Positions 58,251 through 63,341 are shown, counted from the first letter of the stretch. The stretch is 64,000 nucleotides of DNA from a phage (GCA_014740375.1 GCA_014740375.1_3041.1); one strand, 5' to 3'. The notes: a model not told the origin generated them from the sequence alone. Numbers and translations are program-made.

Positions 58251-58886
58251 TCACAGTTCAGATGCTACAGTGATTACTGCTTCAATGTTTTCTGCCGAGC
58301 GTTTAATGTCAAGATACACATTACCGTTTTTAGCGATTTTACAAGACATTCCGATGTCAGTAAATTTCTGAATATGATGTTCCATCATTTTGTATCCAAA
58401 AATTCGCATATTTCCATTGTTGTTAATTTCAAAATTACGAATTCCGTGAGTGCGTTTTTCTAAAATAGCAAGATAGTTACTGCGATAAGTTTCAACCTTT
58501 TTAAGAACAAATCCATTTTCATCCAAAAGTTTTAACATGAGGTCTTTATCTTCTTCCATATCAGAAGTAATCTCGCGAGCTTTACGAGTTGCTCGTTTTT
58601 TCAGCAGTTCCGGAGCATTTTCCTGTGCGTATAAAGTTGCTGCGTTTGAAATAATATCCTGAGCTTCACCTGTAATGATTAATCCATCACCAGATTTCTC
58701 TACCAGGCCTTTTTTAATCAATACCCCAATATTACTATTAACTACTGCGTTACCTAAATCTGGATGCACCTCACGAACTTCTGCAGCTGTAATGAAATCT
58801 TTCTTAGCAATGGTAATTAAAATCGCAGCAGTTTTTTCATTCAGAACATCGTTAGAAGCTTTGATGATGTAAGTTACTTTAGACAT
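58251..58886 (-). CDS. motA: Middle-transcription activator MotA
   Basis: 211 aa; T4 length; own early promoter and GGAG Shine-Dalgarno. Confidence 0.92.
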   Translation of the reverse strand: MSKVTYIIKASNDVLNEKTAAILITIAKKDFITAAEVREVHPDLGNAVVNSNIGVLIKKGLVEKSGDGLIITGEAQDIISNAATLYAQENAPELLKKRATRKAREITSDMEEDKDLMLKLLDENGFVLKKVETYRSNYLAILEKRTHGIRNFEINNNGNMRIFGYKMMEHHIQKFTDIGMSCKIAKNGNVYLDIKRSAENIEAVITVASEL

Positions 58887-58957: not shown

Positions 58958-58988
58958 CGTTTTGTGAAAAAATTTTAAAATAAAAAAA

Positions 58989-59008
58989 GGGAGAGCCTCG
59001 GCTCTCCC
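58989..59008 (-). terminator. Rho-independent terminator downstream of gene 52 operon
   Basis: GGGAGAGCC-loop-GGCTCTCCC followed by TTTTTTTA on minus strand. Confidence 0.65.
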
Positions 59009-59013
59009 TAAAA

Positions 59014-59163
59014 TTACTGCATGACAGTTATCACAGTCATGATAACACGTTGAATTCCGAACGCAAGAAGACCTCCTGCTACGGCTGGAACAACGCCTAA
59101 ACCCGCCAGTAAAATGCTACCAGATACTAATGCAGCGCTTGTAATACCAATGAATGGACTCAT
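59014..59163 (-). CDS. Small hydrophobic membrane protein (49 aa)
   Basis: ATG overlaps gene 52 stop (ATGA); AGAGGA Shine-Dalgarno; translation MSPFIGITSAALVSGSILLAGLGVVPAVAGGLLAFGIQRV ... Confidence 0.4.
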   Translation of the reverse strand: MSPFIGITSAALVSGSILLAGLGVVPAVAGGLLAFGIQRVIMTVITVMQ

Positions 59164-60488
59164 TTGATTTCCTCTAAATCTTTAGTGTATTCAGTAACTA
59201 CATCAGTAGTTTTCCAATATTCGTTTTCTTCTTTTTTGGCTTTAGCTTCTTCGGCAAGTTTCTTCGCTTCATCGGAAGTCATATGAAAAATATTCATTCC
59301 AACTAGTTTATCAACATAAGAAGAATACATATCGATTTTCGAAAGTTCTTCGGTCAGTTCTTTACGAGTTTTACCCTGCACAACGATTTCACCTGAAATT
59401 ACTTTCTTAATGAAATGTGCCTTGGCAAAGGCTAAACGAAAAGCTGACTCAGTTTCTTTAATTTTGTTATCAATTCGTTTTTGGACATAAGTTTTACGAA
59501 CTTCAACAAAGTCTTTAATTAAATCAACTACGTTATCGTAAACTTGTAGTTTTCCTTTCTCATTAATAACCGTAATATTCTGAGAACGACGCTCAATCAA
59601 CCCGAAGTCTTTCATAATTTTTGCATGACGTTCTTCTTCATTATCGCTCAAAGAATATTCTTTGCGGAATTTAACTTTGAATCCAAAACCATGCTCACCA
59701 CAAGCATCATCCCATGTAATGAAGCCTTTATCTTCAAGTGGGTCTAAGATTTTACTCACATAAGTTTCACGATCATACTTATACGGAATCTCAGTGATAT
59801 GCATTTGAGTTCGTGAAGTAAACTTATATGTTCCACGAATTTCATATTGCCCATCAATTTCAACGACTTCACCACGAAATTCTGGGAATTCTACCTTCGG
59901 TTTAGTTACTTTCTTTCCTTGAAGAGCTTGCAGTACAGCTTTCTTGACAGAAGAAACACTATGAGGAAGAATGTAAGTTGCATAACCAGTTGCAATACCG
60001 GAAACACCATTAAGAAGAACAGTAGGAATAATAGGCAAATAGAAAGCAGGCGGAATGTGTTCTTTATCTTGATGTACCGGAGCATATTCAGTATCTTTAT
60101 ATACGTTATAGAAATTTTTACTTACACGAGCAAAAATATAACGACTTGCCGCTGCCTTTTGGACAGTACGAGAACCGAAGTTTCCTTGGCCATCTAACAA
60201 AGGAAAGTTATTATTCCAAGTATTAGCCATCAAAGCCCCCGCATCTTGTGCAGAGTTTTCACCATGATGATATCCAAGGTCAGCTACACCACCTGCAATA
60301 GAAGCAAGTTTGTGAAACTTATCTTTATTTCCTCGCGCCAAATCAAGAGCTCGAGCAATAACAAATCGTTGAACTGGCTTAAATCCATCAATCATATTTG
60401 GAATAGCACGATTTTCAACCGTGTACATAGCATAAGCCAATGCTTCATTATCAATGATACTTTTTAAATCGCGATTATTCAGTTGCAT
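59160..60488 (-). CDS. 52: Topoisomerase II medium subunit gp52
   Basis: 442 aa; T4 length; GyrA-like N-terminal region. Confidence 0.9.
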   Translation of the reverse strand: MQLNNRDLKSIIDNEALAYAMYTVENRAIPNMIDGFKPVQRFVIARALDLARGNKDKFHKLASIAGGVADLGYHHGENSAQDAGALMANTWNNNFPLLDGQGNFGSRTVQKAAASRYIFARVSKNFYNVYKDTEYAPVHQDKEHIPPAFYLPIIPTVLLNGVSGIATGYATYILPHSVSSVKKAVLQALQGKKVTKPKVEFPEFRGEVVEIDGQYEIRGTYKFTSRTQMHITEIPYKYDRETYVSKILDPLEDKGFITWDDACGEHGFGFKVKFRKEYSLSDNEEERHAKIMKDFGLIERRSQNITVINEKGKLQVYDNVVDLIKDFVEVRKTYVQKRIDNKIKETESAFRLAFAKAHFIKKVISGEIVVQGKTRKELTEELSKIDMYSSYVDKLVGMNIFHMTSDEAKKLAEEAKAKKEENEYWKTTDVVTEYTKDLEEIK

Positions 60489-60492
60489 AAAT

Positions 60493-60633
60493 TTACCATA
60501 CTAGTGAATGTAGTGCCATAATAACATCAGAAATGAAAAGCACGACTTGAATTAATCCGAACATTACTCCATAATATAGTGCTACCAATAAAGTAGCAAG
60601 GGCTAATGAATAGCCCAAGATTTTCTTAATCAT
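60493..60633 (-). CDS. Possible small hydrophobic ORF (46 aa)
   Basis: ATG-initiated hydrophobic ORF between gene 52 and upstream small ORF; no clear Shine-Dalgarno. Confidence 0.3.
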   Translation of the reverse strand: MIKKILGYSLALATLLVALYYGVMFGLIQVVLFISDVIMALHSLVW

Positions 60634-60784
60634 TAGTAGATAACAACACAAATGTTAAATATGCACACATACCCTGGGCTAAAGCTTGTGAAAACACACT
60701 GCTAGCATCGATACAGATAGTTAAAACACATGCTACTATCCAACAAATAAATGAAATAACTCCTAATAATTTTGCAATATTCAT
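60626..60784 (-). CDS. Small membrane protein (52 aa from MNIAKLL)
   Basis: GAGGAG Shine-Dalgarno; hydrophobic core; paralog of 60795-60950. Confidence 0.45.
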   Translation of the reverse strand: MNIAKLLGVISFICWIVACVLTICIDASSVFSQALAQGMCAYLTFVLLSTND

Positions 60785-60794
60785 AATATTCTCC

Positions 60795-60950
60795 TCAACT
60801 ATTTTTAGAACCAATGTACGCGAATAATGATAAAATCGCTAATACACCCTGAGCTGATGCTTGCAAAAATACTGAAGTTTCTCCAGTTATTACTGTTCCG
60901 ATGCATAAAAAGAACCAACAGAAAAAGGCTATACCGTGAACAAATTTCAT
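60795..60950 (-). CDS. Small membrane protein (51 aa), paralog of downstream ORF
   Basis: Shares SSVFSQALAQG / TSVFLQASAQG motif and hydrophobic helix with 60626-60784; GAGGA Shine-Dalgarno. Confidence 0.45.
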   Translation of the reverse strand: MKFVHGIAFFCWFFLCIGTVITGETSVFLQASAQGVLAILSLFAYIGSKNS

Positions 60951-60957
60951 ATTTTCC

Positions 60958-61038
60958 TCACTGGCGTCCGAAGACGCCTTTGGTTTTAAGATTGTTACGA
61001 TAAAACTGCATCACATGTTCGTTATGGAAATTACTCAT
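60958..61038 (-). CDS. stp: Stp peptide (26 aa; suppressor of three-prime phosphatase)
   Basis: Translation [26 protein letters not shown] matches T4 Stp as I recall it; ATG overlaps ndd stop by 1 nt. Confidence 0.8.
60963..60978 (-). promoter_or_regulatory. GC hairpin within 3' end of stp
   Basis: GGCGTC-CGAA-GACGCC covering the last codons of stp, just before the next Shine-Dalgarno. Confidence 0.4.
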
Positions 61039-61481
61039 TAATATGCCTGCAAAACAAATTTAAAGTTATCAGCCAACATACGGTTCATTTCTTCAAGTGT
61101 TTGATACTCAGAATGATGATTACGAGTAAACGCTAAAGCTAACTGACCTTTTCCAAATCCCGTCGTCAGAGGTTTCATCTTAGAAGCAGGCAGATAAAAC
61201 ACCGTGTATACCATATTATTATTTGCAATAGTACGCGCAAGTTGAGACCGTCGTTGACGAATATGACTTAAAACCGCGCTGAATCCTTGCTTAGAACGCT
61301 GATTACCTACATAAAATCGTGCAGATACACATGAACCATCGAATTCACTTACTAAAAAGTAAAATCCAGGTTTAGACAAAATGTCTTTGTGTGGAGTTCC
61401 CAAAAACCACTCACCGCCCTTGATTGTACCAATAACAGTAGCGCCTGCGTTGTTCAGATCAGTAACAGCCATATATTTCAT
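61038..61481 (-). CDS. ndd: Ndd (nucleoid disruption protein)
   Basis: 147 aa from [18 protein letters not shown] with GAGGA Shine-Dalgarno; track extension to 61529 lacks a ribosome binding site. Confidence 0.75.
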
Positions 61482-61541
61482 TTTAATTTCCTCTAAATTA
61501 TTTTCTACTCCAAGGCCGCATGAATACATACGGCCGATAAA

Positions 61542-61757
61542 TTAATCGTCGCAGTCGACGCTCAATTCCCAAAACTCTTCTACAGTATAAGTTTCAGTAT
61601 CATTTTCAATACAGAAACGTTCATTACTATTATTTGCTAAAGTAGCATTAACTGTCGGTTTCTCGCTAGTGCTCTTAAGAGGTGAAATACGAATTAACTG
61701 ATCACCATTATCTAAACAGAAAATTTCACCAACTTTTACATCTTTAAAACTTTTCAT
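61542..61757 (-). CDS. Hypothetical protein (ndd.1 position)
   Basis: 71-aa ORF. Confidence 0.5.
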   Translation of the reverse strand: MKSFKDVKVGEIFCLDNGDQLIRISPLKSTSEKPTVNATLANNSNERFCIENDTETYTVEEFWELSVDCDD

Positions 61758-61872
61758 AATTCACCTCAAGGAGTATAAAATCCAAATGCAGTTGTTGACC
61801 ATCCCATCCAATATGGGAAATTTGCACCAATGTAAAACATGAGAATATAAAACCAACCACTCAGCAAATTCA

Positions 61873-62070
61873 TCATTTTACACCATTCCAAATTGTTTCA
61901 ACCACAGATTTTAAACCATTTTGATGAATATCCATTCCGACTACCGCCATCAAATAGATTCCAACTACAACTGAACCTAAGGCAAAAATCAGCATGAAAA
62001 TGAATAAAGCCGGAAAAATATTATCGAAAAACCATTCAATAAATGTAAAAGCACTACGTTTACGCTTCAT
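61873..62070 (-). CDS. Small membrane protein (65 aa from MKRKRS)
   Basis: GAGGA Shine-Dalgarno; two hydrophobic segments. Confidence 0.45.
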   Translation of the reverse strand: MKRKRSAFTFIEWFFDNIFPALFIFMLIFALGSVVVGIYLMAVVGMDIHQNGLKSVVETIWNGVK

Positions 62071-62077
62071 ATTTTCC

Positions 62078-62191
62078 TCACATAAATCCAAAATAAGCGT
62101 TTAATACATCAATCATTAAAACGATTGGGAATATACTCAAAACTATTAGTATTATAACTACATTCCATATAGCTTTAATAATCTTTTTCAT
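62078..62191 (-). CDS. Small membrane peptide (37 aa)
   Basis: GGAGG Shine-Dalgarno downstream of an early promoter; track ORF over-extended through the promoter. Confidence 0.4.
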   Translation of the reverse strand: MKKIIKAIWNVVIILIVLSIFPIVLMIDVLNAYFGFM

Positions 62192-62219: not shown

Positions 62220-62249
62220 ATAGTACCACGGAAGAACAGTCTTGTAAAC
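62220..62249 (-). promoter_or_regulatory. T4-type early promoter
   Basis: Minus strand GTTTAC, 18 bp, TACTAT. Confidence 0.5.
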
Positions 62250-62434
62250 AACTTTTTTAAAAATATTCGTAATAAATGTGAATACCAACTACTACCGCTG
62301 AAACCTGTGCAACCCACCACGCACAAGCAATAAGTACAGAATTCAAAATTTTCATAATAACCTCATCACAAAAGTAAATGTTAAACAAATTACTGGAATA
62401 CTAATTAACCAAACAAAACACCACCATAATGAAC

Positions 62435-62698
62435 TCATAGCTCAATCTCAGCGATTTTCATTTCATTACTATTAATAGCCTCTTTAAGACTATCTGAAAG
62501 AATTACATTCCAGTGGTCATTCATATGACCATTAACTAAGCGTGTAATTTCTTCAGGAGTTGAAAAATAAGGCTGATCAGACTCCCAATGCGATAATCCT
62601 AAGCGAGTATAAATCATGCCTTCATCATCGCTCGAATATTCAACTGACACAAACTCATCAGTTATTTTATGTTTAGCGTAATAAAATTTAAATTTCAT
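62435..62698 (-). CDS. Hypothetical protein (87 aa from MKFKF)
   Basis: ATG with GGAG Shine-Dalgarno downstream of an early promoter; track start is TTG. Confidence 0.5.
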   Translation of the reverse strand: MKFKFYYAKHKITDEFVSVEYSSDDEGMIYTRLGLSHWESDQPYFSTPEEITRLVNGHMNDHWNVILSDSLKEAINSNEMKIAEIEL

Positions 62699-62735
62699 TT
62701 TATTCTCCAAATCCGTATCAGTAGTTGATAGTTGT

Positions 62736-62765
62736 ATAGTACCACGGTCCTTGTGGTATGTAAAC
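62736..62765 (-). promoter_or_regulatory. T4-type early promoter (cassette family B)
   Basis: Minus strand A/T-rich upstream tract, GTTTAC, 18 bp, TACTAT. Confidence 0.55.
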
Positions 62766-62783: not shown

Positions 62784-63341
62784 TTAAATGGAAAGATACC
62801 ATCCGTTGTAGTTGCTTTTTCTTACAACCTTACGAAGGTCTTCTCTGTCACCGATGAACTTCGGAGTGTACTGGATGACACCTGGATGAATTTCTTTAGT
62901 GTTGAATATAATTATACAGTCAGCGACTTGATGATTTAGAATGGGCCCTAAATTTATTCCAGAACCATATGGATACTCTCCGCTGCATCCCGTTGTTACC
63001 GAAATCCAACGCGAGTCAGTTTGATGTGTTTTGACTTCTACACGAAGCCCGCAATATTTTGGATGCGCTAAAACATCCCATGCATACGTGTACGGATCAT
63101 CGACATTTTCTTGGCCTTTATTGACATATCCGCTTAGCCAATCTGCCACAAAAAACTCTGCGTACACAGCGATACGGCATCTTTCGATAACTTCTGCTTT
63201 ATCCTGGTTCGGGTTTTGTTTTAAAGAGTATCTTGCTGTATCAGCAATTTTGACCTTCATTTCACTAGTCAAGTCACTGTTCGATAGGGTAAATGTCGGA
63301 ATCTGAAATAGTCTCTGTAACCCAGGATTCGTTTTCTGCAT
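62784..63341 (-). CDS. denB: Endonuclease IV-like protein
   Basis: 185 aa, same length and map position as T4 denB (upstream of ndd cluster); assignment by length and synteny. Confidence 0.6.
   Translation of the reverse strand: MQKTNPGLQRLFQIPTFTLSNSDLTSEMKVKIADTARYSLKQNPNQDKAEVIERCRIAVYAEFFVADWLSGYVNKGQENVDDPYTYAWDVLAHPKYCGLRVEVKTHQTDSRWISVTTGCSGEYPYGSGINLGPILNHQVADCIIIFNTKEIHPGVIQYTPKFIGDREDLRKVVRKSNYNGWYLSI

Follow-up and report, generated by a model that had tools for sequence, protein, structure and literature searches.

In bacteriophage T4, deletion of the acridine-sensitivity gene ac results in acriflavine resistance, as does a G38R substitution in the encoded protein, and expression of Ac in Escherichia coli makes cells about 3 logs more sensitive (bioRxiv 10.1101/2025.06.30.662393). 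The same preprint reports that a Thr-insertion variant of Ac from phage PP01 stays sensitive, the insertion being phenotypically neutral, summarises classical work in which the phenotype was ascribed to increased dye uptake, and proposes that Ac blocks AcrAB-TolC efflux. Efflux blockade was repeated as an assumption in a PNAS paper of 2026 that deals with intercalators acting as chemical antiphage agents (PMC13250531). A second ac gene is mentioned in neither publication, and the Petrov 2010 review contains nothing on this locus. The present analysis concerns a segment (positions 59014-62191) of a 64,000-nucleotide stretch of phage DNA (GCA_014740375.1; hereafter the window, to which all coordinates refer) in which an initial annotation, made from the sequence alone, had noted a cluster of very small hydrophobic open reading frames (ORFs) around gene 52, stp and ndd, two of them apparent duplicates. 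All genes of the cluster are already named in T4 or annotated in close relatives, and overall the biology of the locus is known, apart from a modest twist in its evolution. It stands out solely by the presence of two adjacent ac copies, here termed A-type and B-type, where reference T4 has one.

AcrZ is a 49-amino-acid (aa) E. coli inner-membrane peptide that binds AcrB and, with a single transmembrane helix, assists efflux. It is comparable to Ac in size, both are membrane peptides, and AcrZ offers a natural analogy for the modulation of AcrAB-TolC by a small peptide. However, two helices are predicted for Ac, and Ac is proposed to block efflux rather than to assist it. A profile search of the PDB with an Ac alignment gave zero matches even at E ≤ 10, and neither Ac protein of the window matched a Pfam family in a version of Pfam that contained no Ac model and was hence silent on both ac genes, the family PF26944 being known from precomputed annotations. 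This absence of similarity to AcrZ lowers the likelihood that Ac is a relative of AcrZ, but not the likelihood that it may act on the pump.

The locus can also be compared with the hyperplastic regions of T4-type phages, in which, according to PMC2839356 and PMC4122927, modular shuffling takes place at conserved boundaries. At the locus studied here, the flanking genes (ndd, 52, motA, denB) are conserved, small genes between them come and go, and the ends of insertions and deletions coincide with regulatory or boundary sequences that are conserved. Breakpoints consisted of repeats of a Shine-Dalgarno (SD) sequence plus start codon and of overlapping stop/start junctions, whereas the papers cited describe promoter-stem-loop (PeSL) cassettes.

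A 3.5-kilobase (kb) stretch of the region was 95-98% identical to 460 phage records from the genus Tequatrovirus, with Shigella phage Sf22 as the best match (98.1%). The source of the window is a Tequatrovirus (T4-like phage), and the region corresponds to its block of non-essential early genes from denB to motA. Genes were assigned one to one by comparison with annotated T4 (NC_000866), Aplg8 and vB_SsoM_113; all of them are on the minus strand, on which all window features described below are also located. The genes follow one another in the order ndd.4, ndd.2a/3, ndd.2, ndd.1, ndd, stp, ac (B-type), ac (A-type), 52.1, 52 and motA.1, and the segment 59014-62191 extends exactly from the motA.1 stop to the ndd.4 start. 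Within it, soluble host-takeover genes (ndd, stp) and topoisomerase gene 52 are interspersed with short genes that encode hardly more than one or two membrane-spanning helices.

The A-type ORF (60626-60784, 52 aa) is the orthologue of T4 ac. Its product was 96% identical to T4 Ac (NP_049877), the sole difference being an extra Thr near the C-terminus (..LLSTND), which is a common variant and the form described for PP01, and the gene has the same flanks as in T4, overlapping 52.1 and lying downstream of stp. The B-type ORF (60795-60950, 51 aa), which is not present in reference T4, is situated upstream of the A-type gene, ends 10 nucleotides (nt) before it and is preceded by its own SD sequence (GTGAGGAAAAT ATG). 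The spacer between the two genes (60785-60794) holds the second copy of an SD repeat (..AGTTGAGGAGAATATT ATG). The B-type product resembles T4 Ac in length, two-helix layout and an SVFxQAxAQG motif that includes G38, but is only 41-43% identical to it and has a different tail (..AYIGSKNS), while its gene does not overlap 52.1. It was 100% identical to proteins entered as "acridine resistance protein" in Aplg8 and other phages.

Both proteins matched PHROG 2501 over the whole profile (A-type, E = 3.7e-25; B-type, E = 4.9e-26), both genes occupy the position of the Ac family, which is upstream of gene 52 and is delimited by 52.1 on one side and by stp (or ndd) on the other, and precomputed PF26944 matches were found on A-type and several B-type relatives. 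When compared with each other, the two proteins showed 41% identity overall (BLASTP, 43% over 40 aa, E = 6e-10) and a Smith-Waterman score of 85, against 24 ± 5 for shuffled sequences (z = 12.5), a value that was reached by none of 5000 shuffles. The B-type ORF is a true paralogue of ac, and the duplication and shared motif initially proposed for 60626-60784 and 60795-60950 were thereby confirmed. The other peptides of the cluster were rejected as further Ac paralogues, all other pairwise Smith-Waterman scores being at most 36.

The motif reads SSVFSQALAQG in one copy and TSVFLQASAQG in the other. Residues common to both copies (S29, V30, F31, Q33, A34, A36, Q37 and G38, plus C14, W15 and T22) were clustered in the loop and at the start of helix 2, and the best-conserved part of Ac is this short polar loop with the start of helix 2, T-x3-(D/G)-(A/E)-(S/T)-S-V-F-x-Q-A-x-A-Q-G. 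Hydropathy analysis identified hydrophobic segments at residues 1-32 and 34-48 of the A copy and at residues 1-23 and 32-47 of the B copy. AlphaFold2, run on the A copy with a 10-sequence alignment, predicted helices at residues 3-24 and 28-51 with a mean predicted local distance difference test score (pLDDT) of 81, in agreement with a published ESMFold hairpin model of Ac (bioRxiv 10.1101/2025.06.30.662393). Both Ac proteins are thus predicted to be two-helix hairpins of about 50 residues, the layout of the B copy having been taken from the alignment. Description of the small ORFs as single-helix peptides, as first proposed, does not hold for these two proteins, and is doubtful for motA.1 and 52.1, in which hydrophobic stretches of 43-45 residues are too long for one membrane span.

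Among 5.8 billion proteins, the Ac family comprised 15 clusters at 90% identity, mostly assigned to PF26944, and among 1.84 billion proteins about 8 credible representatives were found at 50% identity. On the basis of these searches, the family is tiny, phage-restricted and confined to the T4 group. Three long proteins with weak matches in the 1.84-billion-protein search (P0018, P0021 and P0022) were rejected as Ac relatives, as each matched only short stretches of the profile, repeatedly; P0018, the sequence of which was examined, is a repeat protein with a VFLQxLKQG motif. An Ac protein encoded on a Logan metagenome contig (P0016) was intermediate between the A and B types.

A 546-base-pair (bp) query extending from stp to 52.1 matched 541 records. 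Of these, 51 covered at least 80% of the query, which corresponds to the tandem state, and most of the remainder covered 73%, which corresponds to a T4-like state with only the A-type gene. The tandem pair is already annotated in database records as "acridine resistance protein (x2)". By tblastn, the B protein was detected at ≥ 95% identity in 48 records, in which its ORF was intact and 98-100% identical, and a B-type ac was not found in the five closest IMG/VR relatives. In an alignment of the stp-to-52.1 interval, T4 lacked exactly 166 bp, equal to the B gene plus the spacer. The breakpoints of this deletion are located between ..GTGAGGAAAA/TATG and ..GAGGAGAATAT/TATG (slashes indicating the breakpoints) and fall in a pair of similar SD-plus-start sequences, one in front of B (..AGTGAGGAAAAT ATG) and the other in front of A (..AGTTGAGGAGAATATT ATG).

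A different junction was encountered in T2 and T6. Their Stp proteins are identical to T4 Stp for 18 residues and then continue as NFGILGFKNS, and the corresponding DNA, GGTTTTAAAAATAGTTGAGGAGAATACTATG, consists of the B-type tail (..IGSKNS stop) followed by the spacer between B and A, joined to stp behind its codon 18. Comparison of T6 (L047, 601-700) and T2 (L048, 601-700) with positions 60785-60840 of the window showed a relic B-type tail (..GFKNS stop) followed by the spacer. Because the T2 and T6 Stp proteins carry this relic tail, the variable C-terminus of Stp in these phages is a deletion scar, left by a deletion out of a tandem ancestor that differs from the one in T4. In the T2 reference sequence, a nonsense change from TCA to TAA affects codon 11 of ac itself (L048, about 813-854), the annotated product being a 13-aa remnant; the sequenced T2 stock was presumably acridine-resistant.

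In RB51, RB33, wV7, UFV-AREG1 and REP4, only a B-type gene was found, 58-77% identical to the B copy of the window and overlapping 52.1. The ac genes of RB51, RB33/RB32, wV7, UFV-AREG1 and REP4 share the pattern MKFV..FFCW..TGETSVFLQA.AQG with window B. In these phages the B-type gene is the sole ac and overlaps 52.1 as ac does in T4, whereas in the window it sits upstream of an A-type gene. More distant phages (gp52 identity 67-89%) carried a single B-like gene with a TGE(T/S)SV motif. Identity to outgroup Ac proteins was 30-58% for the B-type against 20-39% for the A-type; in five of six comparisons the B-type was the nearer of the two, and in the remaining one both were about equally near. 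The B-type is most likely the older form, and the evidence points to a tandem B-A state that would be older than the single-copy states. In the most economical history, which is proposed here, an ancestral B-like gene would have been duplicated together with its SD sequence, after which the downstream copy diverged into the A-type and became strongly constrained. Lineages would later have lost one copy: in T4 and most of its relatives, a clean deletion from one SD-plus-ATG repeat to the other would have removed B, in T2 and T6 it would have been lost by a deletion through which the B tail was joined to stp codon 18, and RB51-like phages carry only a B-type gene.

Selective constraint was estimated as the ratio of nonsynonymous to synonymous substitution rates (dN/dS) by pooled Nei-Gojobori calculations on pairs that differed by 2-25% in nucleotides, drawn from 41 gp52 loci from IMG/VR (gp52 identity 47-100%) and 11 GenBank phage loci. 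The A-type ac gave a dN/dS of 0.09 and the B-type 0.46 pooled (0.21-0.66 per pair), the highest value in the cluster. The changes behind the higher ratio of the B-type were distributed across both helix 1 and the C-terminal tail, and the central motif was invariant among B-types. A protein that is functional yet less constrained or diversifying fits these data better than a pseudogene.

An alternative is that the B copy is a redundant duplicate in the process of being lost, transcribed with the operon and adding nothing beyond the A-type, until drift eventually deletes it. Two independent deletion types have removed the B copy (in T4 and in T2/T6), only about 9% of the matching records keep both ac genes, and the dN/dS of B is well above that of the A-type, all of which would be expected under such a scenario. 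This explanation was nevertheless considered somewhat unlikely, in view of the intact and nearly identical ORF in 48 records, the strong SD sequence of the gene itself, a dN/dS below 1 in every pair and the invariant motif. Furthermore, a B-type gene is the only ac in RB51, RB33, wV7 and UFV-AREG1, as is a B-like gene in other genera, which suggests that the B-type protein can be functional on its own.

The tandem could also be a recent mosaic, in which illegitimate recombination between A-type and B-type phages at conserved gene boundaries placed two alleles side by side. Phages with only an A-type and phages with only a B-type gene both exist, with near-identical stp and 52.1 flanks, and modular shuffling at conserved boundaries is documented for T4-type phages (PMC2839356 and PMC4122927). 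Other cassettes have moreover been inserted at the same boundaries. An unrelated membrane ORF of about 53-60 aa with two hydrophobic segments (ORF X, ..FFLGVW(T/S)P..) was found between stp/ndd and ac in REP4 (L052, 610-771) and in a contig from Logan SRR8048111 (L053, 720-902). It ends with the same AAAAATGATTAAGAAA junction as the ac/52.1 boundary, and this shared junction suggests cassette exchange at conserved gene boundaries. A mosaic origin of the tandem is, however, rather unlikely: a diverged remnant of the B tail and spacer is present in T2 and T6, so that the tandem state would predate the T2/T6 lineage, the spacer is itself a copy, now diverged, of the SD region next to stp, which is what duplication of a gene with its SD sequence would produce, and the A-type occurs only within Tequatrovirus, so that it must derive from a B-like gene somehow.

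With respect to function, the initial annotation had named acriflavine resistance (ac) as one candidate. This assignment was correct for 60626-60784, which is ac, and the neighbouring ORF belongs to the same PHROG 2501, but the polarity has to be reversed, since wild-type Ac sensitises and resistance results from loss of ac. Its 96% identity to T4 Ac and the sensitivity of the PP01 Thr variant indicate that the A-type of the window probably sensitises to acridines; its product would make infected cells accumulate acridines, upon which acriflavine would block phage growth. In the mechanism favoured here, both peptides would insert early as hairpins in the host inner membrane, with cytoplasmic N- and C-termini, a topology suggested by the positive-inside rule because Lys residues are found near both ends and the loop is acidic. 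The conserved loop and helix 2 face would then be exposed on the periplasmic side of that membrane. The AQG motif, to which G38 belongs, is common to both copies. Both peptides would act on the same class of host membrane target, thereby raising net dye accumulation, with AcrAB-TolC efflux as a candidate.

It is conceivable, but was judged improbable, that A-type, B-type and X are non-redundant and represent alternative or combinable effectors tuned to different inner-membrane targets of the host or variants of a target, for example different resistance-nodulation-division (RND) efflux pumps or host species. Phages with both A and B would in that case disable a broader set of hosts or pumps, and an A/B hetero-oligomer could be envisaged. 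If this were true, natural DNA intercalators from soil or gut microbes would be a cost that repeatedly selects for loss of one copy.

Superinfection exclusion, another role initially suggested, would make the small hydrophobic ORFs immunity factors that block entry of incoming phage DNA. T4 Imm and Sp are early-expressed small membrane proteins, and the resemblance of the present peptides to them is confined to this general class. The imm and sp genes, to which exclusion in T4 maps, lie elsewhere in the T4 genome, no Imm- or Sp-type family was found for any of ten peptides (Pfam, E ≤ 0.1; PHROG, E ≤ 0.01), and the one gene of the cluster with a known phenotype, ac, affects dye accumulation. 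A role in exclusion is therefore very unlikely. The more general suggestion of host-membrane targeting remains a reasonable generic reading for what are conserved early-gene membrane peptides.

The ac genes belong to a set of nine hydrophobic genes of 28-65 codons between motA and denB (motA.1, 52.1, the two ac genes, ndd.2, ndd.2a/3, ndd.4, ndd.5 and ndd.6), which are real and conserved. Grand average of hydropathy (GRAVY) values of their products were 0.6-1.8, the average over every small ATG ORF of the window being 0.29 ± 0.65, and 8 of the 34 hydrophobic small ORFs of the window were located within 5.4% of its length (binomial P about 4e-4), in line with the clustering that had been noted at these positions. 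Two proteins encoded inside the cluster, Stp and Ndd.1, are not hydrophobic. One of the eight ORFs (59906-60085, 59 aa, ATG start) is a product of chance, located out of frame within gene 52, and illustrates how readily small hydrophobic ORFs appear in this AT-rich genome.

In-frame dN/dS values were 0.05 for motA.1, 0.07 for ndd.2a/3, 0.11 for ndd.2, 0.16 for ndd.5 (one pair only), 0.17 for both 52.1 and ndd.6, and 0.20 for ndd.4; together with A-type ac, eight of the nine genes were in the range 0.05-0.20, and soluble ndd.1 gave 0.09. In the two shifted frames of the same alignments, dN/dS was about 0.6-9.5. As in-frame values were below those of the shifted frames, these ORFs are real genes, and the equal rates of synonymous and nonsynonymous change by which the initial annotation could have been refuted were not observed. 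Every small ORF has an ATG start, and most have a GAGG-type SD sequence 4-9 nt upstream, namely motA.1, both ac genes, ndd.2a/3, ndd.4 and ndd.5. The SD sequences originally ascribed to the small ORFs were thus present in most cases, the exceptions being 52.1 and ndd.2, both of which overlap the preceding stop codon. The ATG of 52.1 falls within the final ac codons (AATGATTAA), which suggests translational coupling, and judging from these overlaps both 52.1 and ndd.2 look translationally coupled.

Each small ORF has a T4 name or a database family. PHROG matches ranged from E = 1e-17 to 1e-31, and Pfam assigned DUF7396 to 52.1, DUF7248 to ndd.2a/3 and Nuclease_act to stp, with four unrelated families in total at E ≤ 0.1. 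No NCBIfam model matched any of the ten peptides, Rfam gave nothing at gathering score within 58.0-63.5 kb, and literature searches with the names ndd.2a, ndd.4 and motA.1 matched only papers on neurodevelopmental disorders. The idea that the ORFs are chance frames in AT-rich DNA, in which T-rich codons would specify hydrophobic peptides that the phage never produces, draws on the many clearly spurious hydrophobic small ORFs elsewhere in the window, such as 59906-60085, but can practically be dismissed. For each of the nine hydrophobic genes (for ndd.5, from a single pair), dN/dS was well below 1 only when the alignment was read in frame. Reading frames are kept in phages with gp52 only 67-81% identical, dedicated Pfam and PHROG families exist, and the genes form a tight head-to-tail array in which they have SD sites or stop and start codons that overlap.

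Among the individual genes, motA.1 (59014-59163) encodes a glycine-rich, very hydrophobic 49-aa peptide (PHROG 3487, E = 2e-31; GRAVY 1.60) with a hydrophobic stretch at residues 4-48. Its start overlaps the stop codon of gene 52 (ATGA), and it has the same position in T4. Gene 52 (59160-60488), which encodes the 442-aa medium subunit of DNA topoisomerase II, is the conserved anchor of the locus. The 46-aa membrane peptide encoded by 52.1 (60493-60633; PHROG 3595) belongs to the gp52.1 family, with a full-length match to PF24129 (DUF7396; E = 3.5e-23) of 81.9 bits against a curated cut-off of 27. In two loci with gp52 81% identical, a second, shorter 52.1-like ORF was observed beside 52.1 (L008 and L034, 3567-3641 and 3856-3996), and ac is therefore not the sole small membrane gene that duplicates in this slot.

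On the other side of the ac pair, stp (60958-61038) encodes a 26-aa soluble activator of the host PrrC anticodon nuclease. The window protein matched PF08133 (E = 2e-21) and is identical to T4 Stp, with all 18 of the residues that are conserved at the N-terminus. A perfect hairpin with a C(UUCG)G tetraloop (GGCGUCUUCGGACGCC, 60963-60978) is located in the last codons of stp, within its 3' end and directly upstream of the B-type SD sequence, with no T-run on the coding strand; it is kept in T4 and RB51, replaced in T2 and T6, and may be an mRNA-stability or processing element. The gene for the nucleoid disruption protein Ndd extends from 61038 to either 61481 or 61529 (147 or 163 aa, depending on the start). 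The upstream in-frame ATG at 61529 would give the 163-aa form, the T4-equivalent start at 61481 has a good SD sequence (GAGGAAATTAAA ATG), and database records differ on the start. It is followed upstream by ndd.1 (61542-61757), which encodes a 71-aa acidic soluble protein, and by ndd.2 (61766-61876), which encodes a 36-aa aromatic-rich hydrophobic peptide (PHROG 4135, E = 2e-24).

The next gene, ndd.2a/3 (61873-62070), is a single ORF of 65 aa with a basic N-terminus followed by a 37-residue hydrophobic core. It is a member of the DUF7248 family (PF23906, E = 4e-20; 71.9 bits against a curated cut-off of 27, residues 6-63 covered). One intact 65-aa DUF7248 ORF was present in the window, in Aplg8 and in all other close relatives. 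The T4 reference (L003, 5933-6129) lacks a single G two codons past the ATG (ATGAA-CGT), which splits the frame into ndd.3 (26 aa) and ndd.2a (40 aa). T4 ndd.2a and ndd.3 are thus fragments of one 65-aa gene, the 1-nt gap being either a laboratory-strain frameshift or an old sequencing error. Upstream of it, ndd.4 (62078-62191) encodes a 37-aa membrane peptide (PHROG 3098, E = 7e-21) and has a strong SD sequence (GGAGG). Just past the segment originally marked lie ndd.5 (62257-62355) and ndd.6 (62352-62438), which encode hydrophobic peptides of 32 aa (PHROG 5011, E = 4e-26) and 28 aa (PHROG 8851, E = 2e-17), respectively.

The block is bordered by denB (62784-63341, 185 aa) and motA (58251-58886, 211 aa). 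Between denB and ndd.6, a soluble ORF of 87-91 aa was observed at 62435-62710; it has no counterpart in T4, where the interval is about 100 nt, and is annotated as hypothetical in vB_SsoM_113. An early-promoter-like site (62220-62248; TTTACA, 17 nt, TG-TACTAT) precedes ndd.4, and sites of similar architecture were found before motA (58956-58928) and near 62764. A nine-pair GC-rich hairpin followed by a T-run after motA.1 (58988-59009) is a strong intrinsic terminator, annotated as such in Aplg8. Transcription of a polycistronic message appears to start from the early-type promoter at 62248-62220 and would end at the terminator at 59009-58988.

Overall, it was considered quite probable that the locus is a T4-like early block of small membrane genes with a tandem Ac-family pair, that both Ac proteins share a class of target, that the B-type is the older form and that copies were lost in individual lineages. 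Several points weigh against this account. The highest dN/dS in the cluster, combined with at least two losses, suggests that the B-type may be dispensable or partly redundant, and the function of the B copy is itself inferred. G38 is replaced by F or L in the most distant family members, and the motif is therefore not absolutely required across the family. The efflux-pump mechanism is indirect, as it derives from one preprint and a secondary citation (PMC13250531). The order of events in the proposed history is unproven, and illegitimate recombination between an A-type and a B-type phage could have produced the tandem. The promoter and terminator calls are consensus matches only, and the pairs used for dN/dS are not phylogenetically independent.

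The additions made here to what was already known are the relationship between B and A, the deletion scars in T4, T2 and T6, the evidence for the B-type as the older form and the recognition of ndd.2a/ndd.3 as one gene. For annotation, ORFs of this region that are too short for the usual length cut-off should be called, being real genes, and "Acridine resistance protein (x2)" in many GenBank records denotes a true diverged paralogue pair and not an artefact. Interest in Ac has revived, with the 2025 preprint (10.1101/2025.06.30.662393) and its citation by the 2026 PNAS paper (PMC13250531), and all experimental work on Ac has been done in T4, which carries only the derived A-type. Phages with a tandem B-A pair (Sf22, Aplg8 and the source of the window), with A only (T4), with B only (RB51, RB33, wV7) and with an stp::B-tail scar (T2, T6) constitute a natural panel. 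Although the gain is incremental, this panel could show whether acridine sensitisation is a property of the whole Ac family and what the family is for.

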